Shown piece after piece: positions 1 to 32,242 of a DNA stretch of 64,000 bases. How positions within the stretch are numbered: the first letter of the stretch is position 1; each line of letters starts with the position of its first letter. The notes beneath the pieces were generated by a model. That model did not search any database. It was not told the origin of the DNA and worked only from the letters and a program-made list of their open reading frames with translations. The DNA is taken from positions 32,001 to 96,000 of the IMG/VR virus record IMGVR_UViG_3300041955_000884. One strand, given 5' to 3'. The DNA comes from a virus. The position numbers and the translations under genes are program-made.

Positions 1-3000
1 ATGCGCCCGATACGCTGCTCGTCGTCGGCCGGATACCAGAGCGGGTCCTGATTATGGATGGCGATGAGACGGCGCTGGGCGTTCACGCCGGTGCCCATCT
101 TCTGCGTGGAACCGATGAGGATGCGGACCTTTCCGTCGTTCATGTCGTTGAAGAGGTTCTGGCGAGCAAGCGCTGTCCCGTAATCGCCGATGAAGGCTAT
201 GTGCTGCGCTGGGACGCCTTCGCGGCGAAGGGCCTCTCTAATCCACTGGTAGCCGGAGAAGTTGGCAGGGCCGCGGCCGTTCACGCCGAGGTTGGCGAAA
301 ATCATCTGGGTCGCCGGACCACGGAAGGACGGCTCCTTGTAGCCGCTCCTCGGGTCATAGAACTGGACATCGCCGGTTGCGTGGTAGATGCGGGCGACGT
401 TCTGCACCATCATGTTCAGCTTCGAGCGCGGGTCGCTTTGCGCCTGCTCCACGAAGCGCGGGTCGATCGCGGCATGGCGCCCATCGTTGATGACGGACAG
501 CAGGATGTCCATGCCCTTCTCGGGCGGTCCTTTCCTGGCCTCAATGGCATCCATACGGTCGGCGAGCCTCGCCTGGTAGTCGTCCAGGATTGGCGTCCGC
601 GGCGCCATGTGGAGCTGCCTGGAGCCGCCCTTGACGGCCGGGCGCGTGACGTATTGCTCAAGCTCGCTCGGCGTCACGATGTCCATTGTCTCGCCGACCA
701 TCTTGTAGAGCTCCGGCATGTTCACGAACTGGCCGAAGCGCGTCTGCGGCTTGTAACCGCCGGCGGCGTTCTCCTCCAACCCGGTCTTCGTGTCGCCGAA
801 GGCCTGCGCCCATGAATCGAAGTGCGAAAGGCCGCGGGCGGCAAGTGCTTGCGGCTGCATGTAGCGGCTCAGGCTGTAGAGCTCGCCCATCGTGTTGGTC
901 ACCGGCGTGCCGGAGGCGAACACCACGGAACGGCCCGGGCGCTGGCTATCGAGGTAGCGCACCTTCGTGTAGAGGTCCCACGCCTTGTTGGAACCCTCGG
1001 GCGTGATACCTTTCACGCCGCTCTGCTTCGTGGCAAAGGTGAGCTTGCGGAATTCGTGCGCCTCGTCGACAAACAGGAAGTCAGCGCCGAGCTCCTCGAA
1101 GGTAAGCGTCTGGTCCTGCGTGCCGTCGCCCTTCCTAGCCAGCCTCTGCTCCAGCTTCTCCTTTTGGTTTTCCACGCGGCCTCTGGCGAAACGGGCGTCC
1201 GGCCCCTGGAGCTCGCCAAGCGCCTGCTCAAGCTGGGCGAGCTGCTCGCGAATCAGATGTTCCTGGAACTCATCGCTGATGGGAATCTTGCCGAAGGACG
1301 AATGCGTCATGATGATGGCGTCGAGGTCGTCCTGCGCCACGTTGGCGACGAACTGCTTGCGGCGGCTGGTATGGAAGCGCTGCTCGTCTGCCACCGCAAT
1401 CTTTGCGGTCGGATACTGCTCGTAGAACTCTTTCGTGAACTGGGCCAGCATGTGGTTCGGAACAGCGAAGAGCGCCTTGCGGATAAGGCCAAGGCGCCGC
1501 ATCTCCATCGCGGCACCAATCATCTCGGCCGTCTTGCCAGCGCCGACGGCGTGTGCGAGATAGGTATTACCGGCCTGGACGACGCGCGCAACCGCGCGAA
1601 GCTGGTGGCTGAACCATTTCCATGTGCTGGAAATGCCGGGGGTCGTCAGGTAGCTGCCATCGAACTGACGGAGCACCGAGCGGTTGAGGGCGTCGTTGTA
1701 AATCTTCGCCATCTGGTCGGCGCGGTCCTGGTCGGAATGGACCCACTTCTCGAACTCGCCCTGGAAGCGGATACCGTCCTCCATGTAGCCAGCGATGGCC
1801 TTGATTTTGTCCGCTGCCGCCTGGGTGGCGACTTCGTCGAATACCTGACGCCGGTCGCTTCCGCTTCCCTCCCACTGGTAGATGCGCGGCGGTGTCCGGT
1901 TCATCGCATCGGAGAGGAGCTGGAGCGCCGTCCGGTCCGGCGTGCCCCATTTTGCCGCGCCGGCAGTCTTGCCTTCGCCGCCCACGAACCACGTTCCGGT
2001 AGTCTTGCTGCGCGCGACATGGACATCGCCGAGGTCAAGGTGGTCGCGGGCGAACTCCTCCACGGTCTCCTTCGGTATCCAGGGCATGCCGACAATCATA
2101 TCGACGAGCGGCGGTGGCACGGGCGGCGGCAGCGCGGCCTCTAGCGCCGAAATGTTGCGGCGCACCTCCGGGTCCGTCTCGGCTGCGGCGCGGGCTTCCT
2201 CCAGCTTCGTGGTCACGTCGCCGGAGAGGTACTCGTCCTTCGTCTGGTAGGTGTCGCCCTTGTTCGGCACTTTGAAGATGGAGTCGCCGAGGTCTCCCAC
2301 GAGGCTGGCGCGGTCGCGGCCCATCTTCTCCGCGATGGCGTCCAGGTCGAAGCGGCCGAGCTTGTTGTACGACCACAGCACGCCGTCCTGAGCGGACTTG
2401 AGTTCCGGCTCCTCGTCGAATTTCAAGATGGAGCGCTCGAAGATTGGCTTCTTGGAATGCGCCCCAGTGGCGAGGTCGTAATTCTCGATGGAGCGGAGGC
2501 GGTAGCTCTCCGGGTCCGACATGAAGGCGCGCACGTTCGGGTAGCGCGCGTCAATGATGTCCGGCACGTCGTCTGGGTCGAAGGATCCCTCGTTGAATTT
2601 GCGCCCTGCCGCAATGGCGGCCTGCCGGGCATCGTCGCGGGCCTTCGCGATTGCGGAGACCTTGGCTTTCGCCAGAAGCATTTCGCTCGGGTCGAAGTCG
2701 CCGTCGTTCCAGTAGTCGTCAATCGAGCGGGCGTCCTCGCGGGCCTCGAGCCGCGCTTCCTCGATTTGCGTCAGGGTCGGCTTGCGGTTGGTCAGCGTCG
2801 TCAGGTTGATGGGCCCGTGCTGGGCCACGAAGGAATCGTAATGGGCACTGAGCCGCTTGCGGGCCTCGGCGCCGCGGGCGTCATCCCTGGCGAGGTCGGC
2901 CTGGAACACGTCGGGCAGCGCATCTCGGATGGGGATAAGATGCTGCACCTTTTCCCGGTCGCCGGCGCTCATGCCGCCGGTAACGCCATGCTTCGGCACC

Positions 3001-6000
3001 TCGCGACCGGCACCGCCTTCGTACTGCATCAGCTTGCCGTCGGGGCCGATGTAGAAGCTGCCGTCTTTCTTCTGGCCGGAAGCGAAGTCGAGCTTCGCGC
3101 GCTCCTCCGGCGACGGAGGCTCCGTCATAATGCCCTCTGGAAGGCGCTCTACGGCGGAGGCGAGGTCGGCGTCGAGGTCGCTGCCAGGGCGCGGCGACAC
3201 CGTATAGTCGTCGCGCGGCTGCATCTTGCCCTGGAAGCTCTCTTCCCCCAGTACATTCTCCGGGTGCTCACTGAAGTAGCGGCTGACGTTGCCTTCAACC
3301 ATGGGTGCCGTTTTGCCGGCGAGTCCGCGCGAGACGACGCCCATCCACGGTGGCTCTTGCCCTTCGGGGACTTCGATGCGGCCCTCTGGGCGCTTCTGGA
3401 AGAAAAGGATGTCGGTCGTGACAGGCGTGCGGGCGTTCCTCATGAACGCATCGCTGTTCAGCCGGATGCCACCGACGAACTCCGCGCGCTCCGCGAGATA
3501 GCGGCGCGCGTCGTCGCTGACAGCGTCCATCGTATAGTGGCTGGTAATGAAGCCTAGCAGGCCGCCAGGCCGGACGCTATCCAGCGACTTCGCAAAGAAG
3601 TAGTTGTGCAACGTGAAGCCGCGCGCCGCGTACTTCGGGTCGCCATGCACCACCGTGTCGCTGAATGGCGGGTTGCCGATGACAAGGTCGAACTGGCCCT
3701 CCGGCATTGGCGTCTTGATGTAGTCGGCCTCGCGGACGCCGGACTCTGGATAGAGCAGCTTCGCGATTTGCGCGGTGATGTGGTCGCGCTCGATGCCCTG
3801 GTACTGGCTCTTCTCGGCGATGTCCGCCGGCATCATGCCGATGAAGTTGCCCGTTCCCATGCCTGGTTCGAAGACGAGGCCGCCTTTGAAGCCCATGCGG
3901 CGGACGGCGTCCCACATCCGGCGGACAACGGTTTCCGAAGTGTAGTGCGCGTACTGGGTGGACTGCGCGGCTGTCCGGTATTCCTCGTCGCTCAGCAGGC
4001 CCTTGAGCCGCGCGCCGATGTCCTCGAAGCCCTTGCCGAAGTTGCCTTGGTTGTCCTCGAAGGCGCCCTTGAGGCCGCCCCAGCCGACGTATTTCGCGAG
4101 GATGGCCTGCTCGGCTTTGGTCGCCGGGCGGTTCTCCTCCGTCAGGCGCTTGGCGAGCTCGATGGCGGCAAGGTTGTCGTTGGCTTTGAGCTTCGGGCCA
4201 CGGGCTTCTTCGAGCGAGCCGGGGCCGATTTGCCAGTTGGCTCCGGTGACGTTGGCGTCGGCAGATCGTCCGGCGGCTCCGGGTTCTGGTCCCTCTCCGG
4301 CGTCGGGAATTCGAGGAAGTGCGCCCGCACCACCTCCTCCGCCGCGTGCTCGGCGTTGGGGTTGAGGTTGCCGTGGCTGTCCCGCGGGCTGCTCCTCAGG
4401 AGGCCCTCCAGCAGGTCGTTCGCCTCCAGGCACACCCTCTGGGCGTGCTGGTCCAGCTTCCCCGCCCGGCGCAGCTCCCGGTACAGTCTCGGGTCTTTCT
4501 CCCTCAGCGCCAAGAGGTAGGTTAGCTTGAAGTCCACCCTCTTCTTCCTCTTCTGGTTCGGTCGGGGCCGGGATCTTGCCGTCGCGCTCAAGCTCATCGG
4601 CGAGGGCGACGATTTCCGGCTCGGTGAACGTCCCGCCGACGTAGCTGTCGGCGATTTCGGCCGGCGTTTCTCCATCGGCGATGCGCTGGCTGATGTCCTC
4701 CAATATGGCGGTGCCGTAGTGGGCGTTGTAGAGGCGCTGGGCTTCGTACTCGTTCAACGGCTCGGGGTGCTCGGCACCCTCGGGCGCGAACGGGATGGCC
4801 TCGATTTCGGCGTATGGCGTCATCCCGCGGGTGTCGACATTCGGGTCGTGGCGGATGGCCTCGTACCATGAACGCAGATACGGCCGGTACTTGTCGCCGA
4901 GCTCGGCCGCCATCGCCTTCGTGTAATCAGCGAAGGCGCGGACGCCGCCCTCGATGTAGTAGCCGGCGAGGTCGATGCCGGCCTGGGCCATCTCGGGGTC
5001 AATGCCGGTGCGCAGCTCGCCGGCCTTCGCGCGGAGAATGGCGCGGGCTCGGTCGGCGCGCTCCCTGGTGTAGATTTTGTTCTTGGCGCCGAAGCCGGCT
5101 TCGGTGGGCTCGGCCTTAGGCGGGGGCGGTCCTTCCGGCGGCTTCGCAACGGCTTCCGGTCTCGCCTCGGTGGGCGGCCGCGGCGGCTCCGTCGTGACCG
5201 GCAGCGGTCCCTTTCCCTGCGCTGGGGCGATGCCGTCGGCGATGTCGCGGGCTTGCGGCGTCTCGGGCGTTGGCGCTGGCCCAGGAAGAGGAGGCGGCGG
5301 CTGCGACTGCCCGGCTTGCTCGGTTACTTCGGTTGGCGTCGACGCTTCCGGTGCTTCGCCGTAACGCCGCAGGAACGTCTCCGCCGCTGCTCTGTCCTTG
5401 AACTGGAAGCCAGGCACGCCGCCCTCGCCGCGCCAGGAGGAGTAGTAGCCGCCGCCTTCCTTCGCGCCTGCGGCGAGTTCCGTGTACCGCTCCCGCGGCA
5501 CCTTCTCGCTCATCGTCACCACGTAGAGCGGGTAACCGCCCTTGGTGTGCGCGGTCTCGACCAGGGCCATGTTGCCGGCGCGTGGCGGGGCCGCTGGGCC
5601 GGGCGTCTCCGGTTCCGGCACCACGCCGGCGGCCGCTTCGGGATGTTTCGCGCGCCACGCCTGCAGGACGGCTTCCTTGGCGTCGGCGTCGCGCCTGCGC
5701 TCGGCCGCGGCTTGGCGCTGGGCCTTCTTGCCGGTCGGCGTCCGCGCCCGCGCTTCAGCCCGGTCATGCTGCGCGGCCTTCGTGCGGTCATAGGCCGCGC
5801 TATCCGCCAGCCGCTTCGCCTCCATCGGGTGGCCAGCGTAGACAGGGTCCGGCACAACCTTCGGCGCTTCGCCGACTTCCGGCTCAAACTTGCTGCCGAT
5901 GGCCGTCTCGCCGCCGTCGGTTCGCACGGTGTAGTGGTAGGACGGCTCAGACCGCTTGCCGCCGAGCATTGCCTGCCAGACGACGCTGGTGGCTTCCTCG

Positions 6001-9000
6001 ATAGTGCCGTGGCGGCCAGCGAGGTGTTCCCCTTCCGGGATAACGACGCGCTCGCCCTCCTTGAATATCAGATTGCCGCGGCTGTCCCTGGCGCGTTCTG
6101 GAGCAGCCCCGGCTCGCCCAGCCTCTGCTGCGCCTGCGGGAGCACCTGCTCGCTCTCCTGCGGCAGCGCCAGCGACGGGTTGGCCTGCTCTTTCTTCTCC
6201 AGGGCGTTCGCCAGCCCCAGCGCCACTTGGCCGTGGTCCGCGCTCTGCTGGTAGAGGTCCCGGATGTCCTGCGGGAGCGCCGGGTTGTTCTGCGCCGCCC
6301 TCGCCTGGGCGTACTGGCGCAGTGCTGTTTGCCTGTTGAACCTCATTCGATATGTCCTCTTCGGGGCGTAGGTTGGCTTCGCCGTAGAGCTGGTCGGCGA
6401 TGGCTTGCGGGCGCCCGGCTGGTGCGGTCGGCGCCGCTTCCGCCGCCTCGGCCTCCGTCATGGCGTGCGGTTCGACCGCAACGCCGTTCCTGTGGGTGAT
6501 TTCGACGTCGTTGTGGTCGAATACGACCACGTTGCGGGTCGGTGGCTCGATGGTCAGGTCGGCGCGATGGCGCTCGAGCACTTCGGCGATAGACGGGGCA
6601 TGCTCCCGCGCTTTGGCTACGGCCTCGTCAATGTTGTCCGACGGTGATTGGCGCTGAAGTTCGCGGACGATAGCGCCGAAGTCAGATGCGCCAAGGCCTT
6701 TCTCGGCTGCGGCCGATACGAGCTTCTCGCCCTTCCACTTGACGCGGTCGAAGCTGCCGCGGCTGCCCTGGTCGAGGTAGCGGATGCCTTTGATGCCAGC
6801 GGCGTGGAGAGCTGCGGAAGCCTCGGCCGGCATTGTCGCGGCGGCCAGTCTCTTGTAGACGTTCTCGCCAGTCAGCGACGCAGGGGCGAGCTCGCGGAGG
6901 AACCGGCCGTCGTCATTCTTTTCGAAAATAGGCGAGACCTTGGCGAGCGTCGCAGTGTCTAGTGGGCGGTCCCAGTCCAAGGCCTCGCCGGGGGTGAACT
7001 TGAGGCGAAGGGTAAGAAGATGGCCCTCGGTTTCCTTCGGCTCTTCCCAACCACTGCGGATAAGGTCTGCCGCCGCTGCCCCCGTGCGTTTCACCTCGGC
7101 CACCGTTGCGGCCGCCGCGTGCTCATCGAGGGCGGCAGCGGCCGCAGCGCGGTCCCCGCCGTGGTGCGACATGGCGGTAGCCGCTTGCTGCTCTGCCTCT
7201 GAAAGCGCCCGCGGAGCCGTAAGGTCGAGACGGTACTGGTTTGCGACGCCGGCTTGCTCAGCTGCGTACAGGACACCCCAACCGTACGCTTGGACGCCCT
7301 CGCCGGTCCCGACGTGCCCCGGCTCTACGCGCTCGAAGAAATGCGGCGTCCCGTGGTAGACAATCCAATCGGCAGCCTGTTTCTCGGCTTCCTCGAAGGT
7401 GGCCGCCCTGGCGTCCTCGTGGCTGTCGATCTCGGCGGCGACCTGCTCGGCTGGCAGCCTCTCGACAACCTCGTCGTAGATCTGCTCCGGCGCCTTGTCG
7501 GCGGAGTTTTCTACGCCAGCGGCTTCGCCGACGCGGGCGGCCAGTTTGTTCGCTGGCGGAAGGGCTTCAACGCGCGCCTTGCGCTCGGCGACTTCCTCGG
7601 CTGCTACCGGCTTGCCGCGCGCCAGCAGCTCCTCGGTCTGGATTTCCGCCGCCCGCTTCGCGCCGACGCGCTCCTGGTCCATGATTTGCTGGACGGTGCG
7701 GATAGGGGCCGGTGCGGCGGGAGCGCCGGGCTTTGCTTCCCCCTCGGCTGCGGGCTTCGCCGCTGCTGCCTCGCGAGCGACGGCCTCCGGTTTCGGCGCT
7801 TCCTCGGCTGGCTTCGGCGCGTAGAGCTGCTCCGTCGCGGCACCAAGCTCGCTGCCGGGGACGCCGGTCACGTACCCATTGCGCTGAAGGTCGCGCTGGC
7901 GGTCCACGGCCTCGGCTGGCGTCATGCGAATCTGGCCACCAGCGCCGCCTTCCTCGGGCGGGATGATGCGGCCGCGGGCTAGAAGCTCGGCCTGCTGCGT
8001 CCGCTTGGCCTTGGCCAGCCCGACGCCGTCTTGCTGCATGATGTCGGCGATGGTGCGGATAGGCTTCGGCTGTGCCGCGGCGGCATCGATGACGGGCTGC
8101 ACGTCCACAGGGCGGCCGTCCATTACCTGGGCGATGCCAGCCTGCATGGCAGCGCCGCGGACGACGGGCGATTGCGGCAGGGCGTCGCGCGCGACTTCCC
8201 CGGGAACCGCGGGCCGTTCAAGCGCGGCGTCCGCTTCCTCCGACGCCCGGAGCAGTGGCGCAATCGCCATGAGTTCGTCGTACTTTTGCGAGGCGTCGCG
8301 GACGCTCAGGTCCTGCTTGCCGGCCCACTTCTGGTCGTAGGCATCCACTGCCGCCCGGTACGCTTGGTATTTGGCGTCGGCGTCAGCCTTCGTTCCCGCT
8401 GGCGGGGGGCCTTCTGGCGGCACGGCGGCCGCCTCGGGCGCGGGTCGCTCGGCTGGCGGCGCTGCGCCACGCCGGATTTGCGTCTCGCTGGTGTAGTACG
8501 GCGTTCCGTCCTCGTTCACCAGCCAGAACCCGCCGCCTTCCGCTTCTTCGACGCGGGCGCCCTTCAGGTCGGCTGCGCGGATGACGCGCTGCGCCTGGGC
8601 TTCGGTGTCGTAGACGCGGCGCACGCGCTCCGGTTCGGCGGCCGCTGCCGTCGGCTCTGCCGGCTGGCGCAGTTCCCGCTCGTCGCGCCAAGCCGCGAAC
8701 TGGTCCTCCGACATCGTGCCGTCTTCGGCGACAAGACCGTCGCGCTTCAGGGCCTCGATTTCGTGCGGGGCGAAGCCGGCCTCGGCGAGGTCAACGGGCA
8801 CGCCAGCCTGCTCGGGGGCCTCGAAGCGGGTGCGCAGTGCGTCCTCACGCTCCGCCGTGAAAGCCGTCTCCGGCACAGCGGCGCGCGTTTCCGGCGAGCC
8901 GGGCGCCGGCGGCATTGGTGCCGGTTCCGGCTCTCCAAGCGGGCGGCCGAGAATTTTGTTGCGCAGCAGCGGCCACGCTTCCTTGACGGCCCCGATGCCA

Positions 9001-9788
9001 GCGTGAATCGCGGCGCCAAGAACAGCCTGCTGGAAGACACCATCCAGCGCCTCGCGCATACCGAACTCGTCGCCCTCTTCCTTGGCCATCGCGCCTTGAA
9101 GGGCGACGTAGGGAACGGCTTGGACCGCACCAGTCGCGGCGCCAGCAGCGACGCGGGCGGCGGTGCGAGCGCCAAAGCCAGTCAGGCCAGCGGTAGCAAG
9201 GCGTTCGAGAATGGCTTCCTCGCCGATGCCTGGCACTACGGCGAGCGCCGCATTCGCCGGGTCGAGCAGGCCGACAGCGAGCTCAATGCCCACGCGCTCC
9301 GGCCAGAAGTTGTAGGCCGCCGTGCGTTGGAGGCGGCTGTCAAGCTCGGTCTCGTCCGCCTTCTGCTTGCCAATTACTTGCGCCATGCCGCGGGAAATCG
9401 GCTTGTCAGTGATGGAGATCGGCTTCCCGTCTGGGCCGCGCGGCGCGTATTGGTCGTTCGCTACGTCGGGCGGCAGTTCCTCGGCTTGGTGCGGGTCAGG
9501 CGGCGGCGGCTCGAAATTCGGCGCCCATCCGGCTTCGGTGCCGGGCATCACCTCGCCGCCAAAGCGGCCGCCAGCGGCAGCGACGCCGATGTCGAACGCG
9601 CTGGCGCCGGGCTGCGCACCGCGCTCGGCTGCGCGCCCAAGGATGGATGGCGTCAGGCCGCGAAGCGCTGCCTCGGCAACATTCGCCGCGCCGCCTGCTG
9701 CGCCAGCCGCCGGGATGTTCGCATAGTCCTCCGCAGCCGCACTTTCCGGCGGCTCGTAAGGACCCTGCGGAATCTGCCAGTCAGCCAT
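1..9788 (-). CDS. Giant DarB-like / large polyvalent internal virion protein (ART-PolyVal-like + N6-adenine MTase + SNF2 helicase), 3'-truncated by window edge, >=3262 aa
   Basis: ATG at 9788 overlaps the upstream stop (TAATG). The same frame gives VYHGTPH..GTGEGVQAYGWG..GIRYLDQGSR (~7370-6470), YVGWGG, EPGMGTGNF, IGNPPF (~4100-3660), HAVGAGKT, VDEAHEF and HNQDPLWYPADDEQRIGR at the window start. Missing from the ORF track, consistent with no in-window stop. Confidence 0.9.
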   Translation of the reverse strand, partial: MADWQIPQGPYEPPESAAAEDYANIPAAGAAGGAANVAEAALRGLTPSILGRAAERGAQPGASAFDIGVAAAGGRFGGEVMPGTEAGWAPNFEPPPPDPHQAEELPPDVANDQYAPRGPDGKPISITDKPISRGMAQVIGKQKADETELDSRLQRTAAYNFWPERVGIELAVGLLDPANAALAVVPGIGEEAILERLATAGLTGFGARTAARVAAGAATGAVQAVPYVALQGAMAKEEGDEFGMREALDGVFQQAVLGAAIHAGIGAVKEAWPLLRNKILGRPLGEPEPAPMPPAPGSPETRAAVPETAFTAEREDALRTRFEAPEQAGVPVDLAEAGFAPHEIEALKRDGLVAEDGTMSEDQFAAWRDERELRQPAEPTAAAAEPERVRRVYDTEAQAQRVIRAADLKGARVEEAEGGGFWLVNEDGTPYYTSETQIRRGAAPPAERPAPEAAAVPPEGPPPAGTKADADAKYQAYRAAVDAYDQKWAGKQDLSVRDASQKYDELMAIAPLLRASEEADAALERPAVPGEVARDALPQSPVVRGAAMQAGIAQVMDGRPVDVQPVIDAAAAQPKPIRTIADIMQQDGVGLAKAKRTQQAELLARGRIIPPEEGGAGGQIRMTPAEAVDRQRDLQRNGYVTGVPGSELGAATEQLYAPKPAEEAPKPEAVAREAAAAKPAAEGEAKPGAPAAPAPIRTVQQIMDQERVGAKRAAEIQTEELLARGKPVAAEEVAERKARVEALPPANKLAARVGEAAGVENSADKAPEQIYDEVVERLPAEQVAAEIDSHEDARAATFEEAEKQAADWIVYHGTPHFFERVEPGHVGTGEGVQAYGWGVLYAAEQAGVANQYRLDLTAPRALSEAEQQAATAMSHHGGDRAAAAAALDEHAAAATVAEVKRTGAAAADLIRSGWEEPKETEGHLLTLRLKFTPGEALDWDRPLDTATLAKVSPIFEKNDDGRFLRELAPASLTGENVYKRLAAATMPAEASAALHAAGIKGIRYLDQGSRGSFDRVKWKGEKLVSAAAEKGLGASDFGAIVRELQRQSPSDNIDEAVAKAREHAPSIAEVLERHRADLTIEPPTRNVVVFDHNDVEITHRNGVAVEPHAMTEAEAAEAAPTAPAGRPQAIADQLYGEANLRPEEDISNEVQQANSTAPVRPGEGGAEQPGAPAGHPGPLPAERGPRPSGAGAGERPGEERAGQPVAGAAAGERAGAPAGAAEAGRAGAAPERARDSRGNLIFKEGERVVIPEGEHLAGRHGTIEEATSVVWQAMLGGKRSEPSYHYTVRTDGGETAIGSKFEPEVGEAPKVVPDPVYAGHPMEAKRLADSAAYDRTKAAQHDRAEARARTPTGKKAQRQAAAERRRDADAKEAVLQAWRAKHPEAAAGVVPEPETPGPAAPPRAGNMALVETAHTKGGYPLYVVTMSEKVPRERYTELAAGAKEGGGYYSSWRGEGGVPGFQFKDRAAAETFLRRYGEAPEASTPTEVTEQAGQSQPPPPLPGPAPTPETPQARDIADGIAPAQGKGPLPVTTEPPRPPTEARPEAVAKPPEGPPPPKAEPTEAGFGAKNKIYTRERADRARAILRAKAGELRTGIDPEMAQAGIDLAGYYIEGGVRAFADYTKAMAAELGDKYRPYLRSWYEAIRHDPNVDTRGMTPYAEIEAIPFAPEGAEHPEPLNEYEAQRLYNAHYGTAILEDISQRIADGETPAEIADSYVGGTFTEPEIVALADELERDGKIPAPTEPEEEEEGGLQANLPLGAEGERPETVPGAAPGGEAGPARPEGVPGGERPAGGPPEEQPAGQPRQPQPQRRARGGGGGAGALPRIPDAGEGPEPGAAGRSADANVTGANWQIGPGSLEEARGPKLKANDNLAAIELAKRLTEENRPATKAEQAILAKYVGWGGLKGAFEDNQGNFGKGFEDIGARLKGLLSDEEYRTAAQSTQYAHYTSETVVRRMWDAVRRMGFKGGLVFEPGMGTGNFIGMMPADIAEKSQYQGIERDHITAQIAKLLYPESGVREADYIKTPMPEGQFDLVIGNPPFSDTVVHGDPKYAARGFTLHNYFFAKSLDSVRPGGLLGFITSHYTMDAVSDDARRYLAERAEFVGGIRLNSDAFMRNARTPVTTDILFFQKRPEGRIEVPEGQEPPWMGVVSRGLAGKTAPMVEGNVSRYFSEHPENVLGEESFQGKMQPRDDYTVSPRPGSDLDADLASAVERLPEGIMTEPPSPEERAKLDFASGQKKDGSFYIGPDGKLMQYEGGAGREVPKHGVTGGMSAGDREKVQHLIPIRDALPDVFQADLARDDARGAEARKRLSAHYDSFVAQHGPINLTTLTNRKPTLTQIEEARLEAREDARSIDDYWNDGDFDPSEMLLAKAKVSAIAKARDDARQAAIAAGRKFNEGSFDPDDVPDIIDARYPNVRAFMSDPESYRLRSIENYDLATGAHSKKPIFERSILKFDEEPELKSAQDGVLWSYNKLGRFDLDAIAEKMGRDRASLVGDLGDSIFKVPNKGDTYQTKDEYLSGDVTTKLEEARAAAETDPEVRRNISALEAALPPPVPPPLVDMIVGMPWIPKETVEEFARDHLDLGDVHVARSKTTGTWFVGGEGKTAGAAKWGTPDRTALQLLSDAMNRTPPRIYQWEGSGSDRRQVFDEVATQAAADKIKAIAGYMEDGIRFQGEFEKWVHSDQDRADQMAKIYNDALNRSVLRQFDGSYLTTPGISSTWKWFSHQLRAVARVVQAGNTYLAHAVGAGKTAEMIGAAMEMRRLGLIRKALFAVPNHMLAQFTKEFYEQYPTAKIAVADEQRFHTSRRKQFVANVAQDDLDAIIMTHSSFGKIPISDEFQEHLIREQLAQLEQALGELQGPDARFARGRVENQKEKLEQRLARKGDGTQDQTLTFEELGADFLFVDEAHEFRKLTFATKQSGVKGITPEGSNKAWDLYTKVRYLDSQRPGRSVVFASGTPVTNTMGELYSLSRYMQPQALAARGLSHFDSWAQAFGDTKTGLEENAAGGYKPQTRFGQFVNMPELYKMVGETMDIVTPSELEQYVTRPAVKGGSRQLHMAPRTPILDDYQARLADRMDAIEARKGPPEKGMDILLSVINDGRHAAIDPRFVEQAQSDPRSKLNMMVQNVARIYHATGDVQFYDPRSGYKEPSFRGPATQMIFANLGVNGRGPANFSGYQWIREALRREGVPAQHIAFIGDYGTALARQNLFNDMNDGKVRILIGSTQKMGTGVNAQRRLIAIHNQDPLWYPADDEQRIGR
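4142..4537 (-). CDS. Nested overlapping gene (+1 frame), TnpV-like helical protein
   Basis: GAGG SD 9 nt before GTG 4537; GC3-rich codons in this frame; LREKDPRLYRELRRAGKLDQH...AEEVV resembles the TnpV pattern; the host frame here is a G/P/E/R linker. Confidence 0.6.
   Translation of the reverse strand: MDFKLTYLLALREKDPRLYRELRRAGKLDQHAQRVCLEANDLLEGLLRSSPRDSHGNLNPNAEHAAEEVVRAHFLEFPTPERDQNPEPPDDLPTPTSPEPTGKSAPARSKKPVARSSKPTTTLPPSSSPSA
6068..6346 (-). CDS. Nested overlapping gene (+1 frame), 92-aa helical protein
   Basis: GAGGA SD before ATG 6346; GC3-rich codons in this frame; the host frame is low-complexity here; immediately follows the ART domain. Confidence 0.6.
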   Translation of the reverse strand: MRFNRQTALRQYAQARAAQNNPALPQDIRDLYQQSADHGQVALGLANALEKKEQANPSLALPQESEQVLPQAQQRLGEPGLLQNAPGTAAAI

Positions 9789-31952: not shown

Positions 31953-32242
31953 TGGGCGAAGGACTGAAGCGCGCTCGGGCAGCGGCTCGAGCGAGCCGGA
32001 AGGGGCCGAAGCTAACCGCGCCAGAGGACATAGCGGCGCACTTCGGAGCACAAGCTCCGGTCGGCACGCCGTGCCGATACTATCCGGTCCGTCCATGCCG
32101 GGGCGACAACTTCGTCGAAACGCGTATCCGCTCCGCGCCGTGGATCCTGGGGGATGGTTGCGTCGTCGTCGCGGTCGAGGGCTTGACCGGCGGCAAGAGC
32201 ATCGAGCACGTCGTTCTTCTGCCGCCGAAGGCGACCACCTGA
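31952..32242 (+). CDS. Hypothetical protein
   Basis: PVGTPCRYYP...TRIRSAPW.LG.G..VV motif. Confidence 0.65.
   Translation: MGEGLKRARAAARASRKGPKLTAPEDIAAHFGAQAPVGTPCRYYPVRPCRGDNFVETRIRSAPWILGDGCVVVAVEGLTGGKSIEHVVLLPPKATT

Follow-up and report, generated by a model that had tools for sequence, protein, structure and literature searches.

Among described systems, the closest to the one reported here is the Rz1 gene of phage lambda, a complete small gene with its own start that lies in the +1 frame of the spanin gene Rz, in the same operon, with both frames maintained (PMC6139136, PMC5295617). A second point of comparison is the P1 DarB-type methylase-helicase dyad of polyvalent proteins, treated in a survey (PMC5512222) that named the domain LPD36 and is without the words TnpV, overlapping or frameshift. 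A third is TnpV of Tn4451/Tn4453-type transposons, a small helical protein of mobile elements. All three bear on a 64,000-nucleotide (nt) stretch of viral DNA (positions 32,001 to 96,000 of IMG/VR record IMGVR_UViG_3300041955_000884; hereafter the window), part of a 107-kb viral contig estimated to be 94% complete, where a small, remotely TnpV-like gene appears to be embedded out of frame in a giant DarB-like gene. On the comparisons set out below, we put the probability that this nested gene is real, as a conserved embedded dual-coding gene, at about 0.8.

The embedded architecture is known from Rz1/Rz. What is new is the host gene, encoding a polyvalent injected protein of ~3,600 amino acids (aa) where that of lambda encodes a spanin; the direction of overprinting, in which the host frame is the newcomer; and an uncharacterised family of small proteins. 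The likeness to Rz1 also has its limits: over the overlap the host frame encodes only a disordered spacer, and the small gene, unlike Rz1, has free-standing and in-frame-fused homologues, so that the new reading is the host frame and not the small gene.

The embedded gene and its relatives

The argument turns on four overlapping features.

3-9788, minus strand: giant polyvalent DarB-like gene, 3,262 codons within the window, continuing beyond the window start
4142-4537, minus strand: embedded +1-frame gene, start GTG at 4537-4535, stop TGA at 4144-4142, 131 codons
4538-4553, minus strand: Shine-Dalgarno-like purine tract GAAGAGGAAGAAGAGG, directly 5' of the nested GTG, its GAGG core 9 nt before the start
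4260-4540, minus strand: dual-coding segment, the giant frame being a G/P/E/R/A-rich spacer that joins upstream modules to the LPD36-methylase-helicase

The original prediction, made from the letters of the window, held that a gene with its own Shine-Dalgarno sequence and GTG start is nested out of frame in the giant gene, that codon bias switches to the +1 frame across it, and that the giant frame there becomes a linker of atypical composition yet stays open. All of this is borne out. The Shine-Dalgarno tract, read in the giant frame, encodes the acidic run EEEEEG. In 120-nt windows, the GC content at third codon positions (GC3) of the giant frame drops from 0.85-0.93 to 0.35-0.45 between ~4540 and ~4260, while that at first positions (GC1) climbs to 0.95-1.00; the nested frame itself has values of 0.73, 0.39 and 0.95 at its first, second (GC2) and third positions. 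Elsewhere in the whole giant open reading frame (ORF) the same signature recurs in one segment only, 6340-6070. The giant-frame translation over the dual-coding stretch (GGLQANLPLGAEGERPETVPGAAPGGEAGPARPEG...) is rich in G, P, E, R and A and remains open. A longer nested version beginning at ATG-4675 (177 aa) is unsupported, as GC3 upstream of 4540 tracks the giant frame. No sigma-70 promoter was found in a scan of positions 3900-5100.

Such a signal could be imitated by an assembly error with two compensating frameshifts, by a chance ORF, or by an opposite-strand gene that shifts GC3. GC-rich DNA does give many spurious ORFs (54 of at least 80 aa in 12 kb here), and a plus-strand ORF at 3606-4520 shares, by the phase of its coordinates, its third-codon positions with the nested frame. 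Yet the overlap stretch recurs, with no differences and no indels, in four independent metagenome runs that stem from other studies, a result which excludes sequencing error and compensating frameshifts and leaves no polymorphism in the overlap from which a frame-specific ratio of non-synonymous to synonymous polymorphism could be drawn. The nested excess of GC1 over GC2 is normal for the minus strand, where an antisense ORF would invert it; a large protein family matches the minus-strand translation; and the same arrangement is found in seven other loci. We consider an artefact highly improbable.

Those loci come from pattern scans of viral, genome and metagenome contigs, which returned 12 loci, two of them repeats of L002, and from which alone genomic context is known. 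The window together with L002-L006, L008 and L010 makes eight distinct nested loci. In all seven of the relatives the nested gene, again in the +1 frame, closely precedes the LPD36-like N-terminus (NFxIEPG...KAxDN) of a methylase-helicase, the placement that had been predicted for the window. An ATG or GTG stands at the same codon in every locus, with a GAGG or GGAG core 6-9 nt before it in 10/10 loci examined (the eight nested loci and two standalone genes, L007 and L013). Averaged over pairs of loci, divergence at nested codon positions 1, 2 and 3 is 0.34, 0.27 and 0.41; such an order (3>1>2) is what a coding frame normally shows, and seen from the giant frame it is inverted. Translated in each of the three frames, these bases give amino-acid identities of 57% (nested), 44% (third) and 40% (giant). 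The locus thus holds what defines an embedded overlapping gene, a complete ORF in another frame of a larger same-strand gene with its own start and Shine-Dalgarno sequence, and this is kept in eight loci.

The product also belongs to a family with a life of its own. A word-indexed search found nine separate small proteins of 95-121 aa with 53-61% identity to it, and a profile search of 1.84 billion representatives yielded 223 protein clusters. Among the best 150 of these 223, lengths have a median of 101 aa and a maximum of 399 aa, with most between 60 and 140 aa; in the great majority the match begins at residue 1, and in none does the domain belong in frame to a giant protein. Searches with the 131-aa product by tblastn against phage and plasmid collections gave no match, and a search of plasmids at the DNA level reached only the methylase part. 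Because gene callers do not permit long overlaps on one strand, they miss this family wherever the giant ORF is intact, as had been foreseen for the nested gene itself.

These termini bear on a different account of the locus, in which a programmed +1 ribosomal frameshift near 4540, instead of or besides internal initiation, yields a truncated isoform consisting of the N-terminal modules and a C-terminal TnpV-like domain. An in-frame fusion of this kind exists elsewhere (the database protein P0100, described below), and the purine-rich Shine-Dalgarno-like tract lies directly upstream of the junction; such tracts stimulate frameshifting in prfB and dnaX. A frameshift would not, however, call for an ATG or GTG exactly at the family N-terminus in every locus, nor for most database members to match from their first residues. 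The giant-frame codons at the junction are explained by the nested sequence M-[DE]-F-K, and the aligned junctions, inspected by eye only and with no dedicated search, disclosed no conserved slippery or stall motif. We regard frameshifting as unlikely and internal initiation as the preferred explanation.

Two relatives, L007 and L013, carry the gene standing alone, with stops on both sides in what would be the 'giant' frame and with an extra C-terminal domain. This domain (CxxCP..HRAV..IDASGIYGDDYQHKTLWDEYC..) occurs in standalone relatives at L013:2483-3316, L007:5252-6047 and L009:6001-6699 and has no match in Pfam, PHROG or NCBIfam. L007 appears frameshifted relative to L013 and adjoins a transposase-like ORF identified by eye.

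Maintenance of the giant frame

Over the overlap, the giant frame is open in seven of the eight distinct loci, downstream of at least five different upstream modules (grouped as the window with L010, L002, L003, L004, L005 with L008, and L006). Openness alone proves little, since with nested GC3 near 100% the first base of a giant-frame codon is almost never T. A sharper measure is offered by those nested codons that precede a codon starting with AA, AG or GA, where a T in the third position creates a stop in the giant frame. Codons ending in T occupy 1 of 239 such stop-risk sites and 24 of 501 other sites (Fisher p = 0.0009). In ordinary parts of the same genes the corresponding depletion is only ~0.65-fold (8.0% vs 11.9%); after allowing for this background, ~8 T-ending codons would be expected at stop-risk sites against the 1 observed (rough Poisson p ~ 0.004). 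The depletion is absent in the two standalone genes.

Phase is kept as well. From the nested start to the LPD36 anchor there are 117, 118, 119, 120 or 121 whole codons among the loci. In five of the eight, no ATG, GTG or TTG occurs in the giant frame over this span, so that the methylase-helicase there can be made only by read-through from upstream. A separate methylase start at the giant-frame GTG overlapping the nested stop was considered and rejected, as the conserved valine is encoded by GTC or GTA in all loci. Taken with the divergence, identity and family data for the nested frame, the stop avoidance, phase and openness of the giant frame lead us to infer that both readings are under selection, the small protein at the amino-acid level and the giant frame only to stay open and in phase.

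Several points weigh against this reading. The eight loci share ancestry, so that the statistics above overstate their independence and are supportive rather than exact. In one locus, L010, a single TGA (L010:379-381; nested TCT-GAG) falls within the overlap and interrupts the giant frame but not the nested gene, and this 1.3-kb metagenome contig offers no restart codon between the TGA and the methylase module; the stop may mark a defective copy, an error, or a fusion that is dispensable. Translation from the internal start at 4537 is something we infer from sequence, no structural or family match above threshold stands behind the function proposed below, and for TnpV itself an Xis-like role has only been postulated (PMC3158075).

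The clear maintenance of the giant frame would also suit a relic, a recently captured former gene or domain in the +1 frame that is no longer translated and now serves only as spacer in the giant protein. Against this, an intact ORF, its start, its Shine-Dalgarno sequence and the 3>1>2 pattern are all kept at 45-60% amino-acid identity across the eight loci; of the three translations, that of the giant frame is conserved least; and in L010 it is the giant frame that bears the stop. A relic is a very unlikely explanation. Among the findings that the original prediction had named as fatal to it were a lack of conservation in the nested frame and a break in the main frame. Neither materialised, since conservation is seen in the nested frame and no break in the main frame of the window.

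The small protein and its likeness to TnpV

The nested ORF divides into two parts.

4253-4537, minus strand: conserved core of the small protein, four predicted helices and a disordered tail with the invariant NPEPPDDLP
4145-4252, minus strand: C-terminal read-out of the nested frame over the first LPD36-methylase codons, ~36 codons, unconserved

A product of 131 aa had been predicted. An ORF of 131 codons is indeed present, but the conserved product reaches only to about codon 95 (...NPEPPDDLP, ~4253) and the last ~36 codons are unconserved; in relatives the stop falls anywhere from codon 96 to codon 131 and the tails vary. The functional product is thus probably the first ~95 residues. The expectation that it is folded agrees with an AlphaFold2 model built on a 17-row alignment, which has a predicted local distance difference test (pLDDT) score of 78 and places helices at residues 3-14, 16-24, 28-48 and 60-74, followed by a disordered tail. 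Within the tail, changes that are synonymous in the nested frame of PEPPDDL (CCG/CCA/CCC, GAG/GAA, GAC/GAT, CTG/TTG/CTC) alter the giant-frame residues, and the motif therefore belongs to the small protein. It marks a subfamily, EPPxDL being carried by 27 of the 149 listed profile matches. In P0023, P0026, P0037, P0090 and P0158, another conserved stretch (G..GRKPGEYQTLMSKVRT) comes after EPPxDL, which suggests a different recurrent downstream context.

The original prediction called the product TnpV-like, and this holds in part. TnpV (PF14198) is the only Pfam family matched, residues 11-49 aligning, in a register that never varies, with positions 34-72 of the 111-position profile, and 23 of 67 family members match it at E<=0.01 (best 6.8e-6). 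The window protein, however, scores 15-16.8 bits (E 0.007-0.025), below the 27-bit gathering threshold for membership; relatives scored individually reach 14.8-22.3 bits. The nearest ESM-Atlas clusters include some named TnpV at 0.87-0.88, which is a lead only. The context differs too. TnpV is expected beside a large serine recombinase in a mobilisable transposon, whereas the present gene lies inside a virion-protein gene of the ejection type; it matches only about a third of the profile, and its PEPPDDL tail is specific to the subfamily. Among the relatives, only the standalone gene of L013 has a serine recombinase nearby, a small one ~1.5 kb upstream; on its other side stands a gene that, by eye, resembles that of a terminase small subunit.

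Other searches with the small protein were negative or yielded leads at most. Foldseek against the PDB gave no match at E<=0.001, a profile search of solved structures no match, and PHROGs and NCBIfam no family; a wide VIA-align comparison reached at best Z 6.2 on the helical model, within noise. The best match in BFVD was Q8W6J4 (part 2 of a long viral protein; TM score 0.63, probability 1.0, E = 0.27), likewise only a lead.

The giant protein, its modules and a probable origin of the overlap

The enclosing protein carries the following domains around the overlap and downstream of it.

3390-4230, minus strand: LPD36-like N-terminal region (ANWQIGPG...KANDNLAAIELAKRL...YVGWGG), then the N6-adenine methylase domain (Pfam; alignment with relatives)
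aa 1942-2133 of the giant protein, minus strand: N6-adenine methylase domain (N6_Mtase, PF02384), with Eco57I (PF07669) at aa 2026-2103 (Pfam)
1044-1619 (aa 2724-2915), minus strand: superfamily 2 (SF2) helicase domain (ResIII, PF04851, E = 3.3e-7; Pfam) of the methylase-helicase dyad
4752-5096, minus strand, giant frame: helical module that we call LPD-X (..DLAGYYIEGGVRAFADYTKAM..LRSWYEAIRH..; also ..AGYYIEGGVRAFADYTKAM..), no Pfam match

PF02384, PF07669 and PF04851 occur in this order in one polypeptide, as a DarB-like dyad should have them, and the stretch preceding the methylase is, from its position and motif, a putative LPD36. Genes directly before the giant gene match PHROG families of internal-virion proteins, a lytic tail protein and tail proteins, the virion-associated and ejection context typical of DarB-like proteins. 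Methylase, helicase and these neighbours together identify the giant gene as that of a DarB-like polyvalent protein in an ejection-protein cluster (as in PMC5512222), with the LPD36-like N-terminus, N6-adenine methylase, SF2 helicase and virion-internal neighbours of the P1 type. Plasmid methylase-helicases of the same type (L014, L015) differ in having an ordinary N-terminus with no recognisable embedded ORF upstream.

By tblastn, LPD-X precedes the nested gene in L003, L004, L005 and L008, as it does in the window. Three database proteins carry the two domains fused in frame, P0100 with LPD-X before the TnpV-like domain and P0045 and P0077 with the reverse order, which makes the TnpV-like domain part of the polyvalent-protein repertoire. 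The fusions would tie it to LPD-X at least as strongly as strict adjacency ties it to the methylase-helicase. A role as chaperone or inhibitor of the methylase-helicase, which had been suggested for the nested product, is one possibility, and what speaks for it is only that strictly conserved adjacency; a complex prediction for the small protein with LPD36-methylase returned a score of 0.00, which weighs neither for nor against binding.

From these pieces a mechanism can be sketched. On the late mRNA of a virion or ejection operon, some ribosomes would start at the GTG behind the GAGG core and release the small helical product on its own, ~95 residues long, with a remote likeness to TnpV and with PEPPDDL in its disordered tail; those already translating the giant gene would read the same bases one frame back, as a featureless G/P/E/R spacer leading to the LPD36-methylase-SF2-helicase. 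The small protein probably works with the giant one through LPD-X, the methylase-helicase or both, PEPPDDL being a candidate docking motif. That it is a detached accessory module of an injected anti-restriction polyvalent system is the weakest step in this proposal.

The overlap itself may have arisen from a TnpV-like gene, free-standing or fused at its C-terminal position as in P0100, that had an upstream module on one side and a methylase-helicase gene on the other. A change of frame would have let the upstream reading frame cross the small gene in its -1 frame, nearly stop-free because the GC3 of the small gene is ~0.83-0.95, and so fuse with the methylase-helicase; the small gene would have kept its Met and gained or kept a Shine-Dalgarno sequence encoded by the acidic run. 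If so, the locus is a concrete case of a multidomain anti-defence protein gaining a spacer by overprinting an existing gene, high GC3 freeing the alternative frame of stops. The mRNA of the giant protein would also supply one polyvalent module in free form, probably at a stoichiometry other than that of the giant protein itself, with a bearing on the assembly, packaging or regulation of DarB-like injected anti-restriction proteins.

The other segment of the giant gene with the same compositional signature holds a second candidate.

6068-6346, minus strand: second embedded +1-frame ORF, 92 aa, ATG start, giant-frame GC1 0.96 and GC3 0.34-0.40

It has small-protein homologues at 55-75% identity and is by hhalign unrelated in sequence to the TnpV-like family. 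A counterpart lies at 3664-3813 of L003, in the +1 frame of the giant ORF there. The presence of two such genes within one giant gene suggests that the phenomenon is not a one-off. We raise, as a tentative generalisation and one that may well not hold, that giant polyvalent phage genes grow by frame-shifted read-through across small high-GC3 genes, which stay expressed as embedded genes; were this true, small effector or adaptor proteins would lie concealed in the 'linkers' of giant injected proteins, two of them here (4142-4537 and 6068-6346).

Finally, contigs in two of the metagenome runs end or diverge in or near the first embedded gene. Run X6 contains a contig of 406 nt, identical to the window, whose ends at 4136 and 4541 fall almost exactly on the borders of the nested ORF; for other contigs, in run X3, the points of divergence are 4261 and 4615. 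From these ends, the segment carrying the embedded gene may be a recombination module in related phages.

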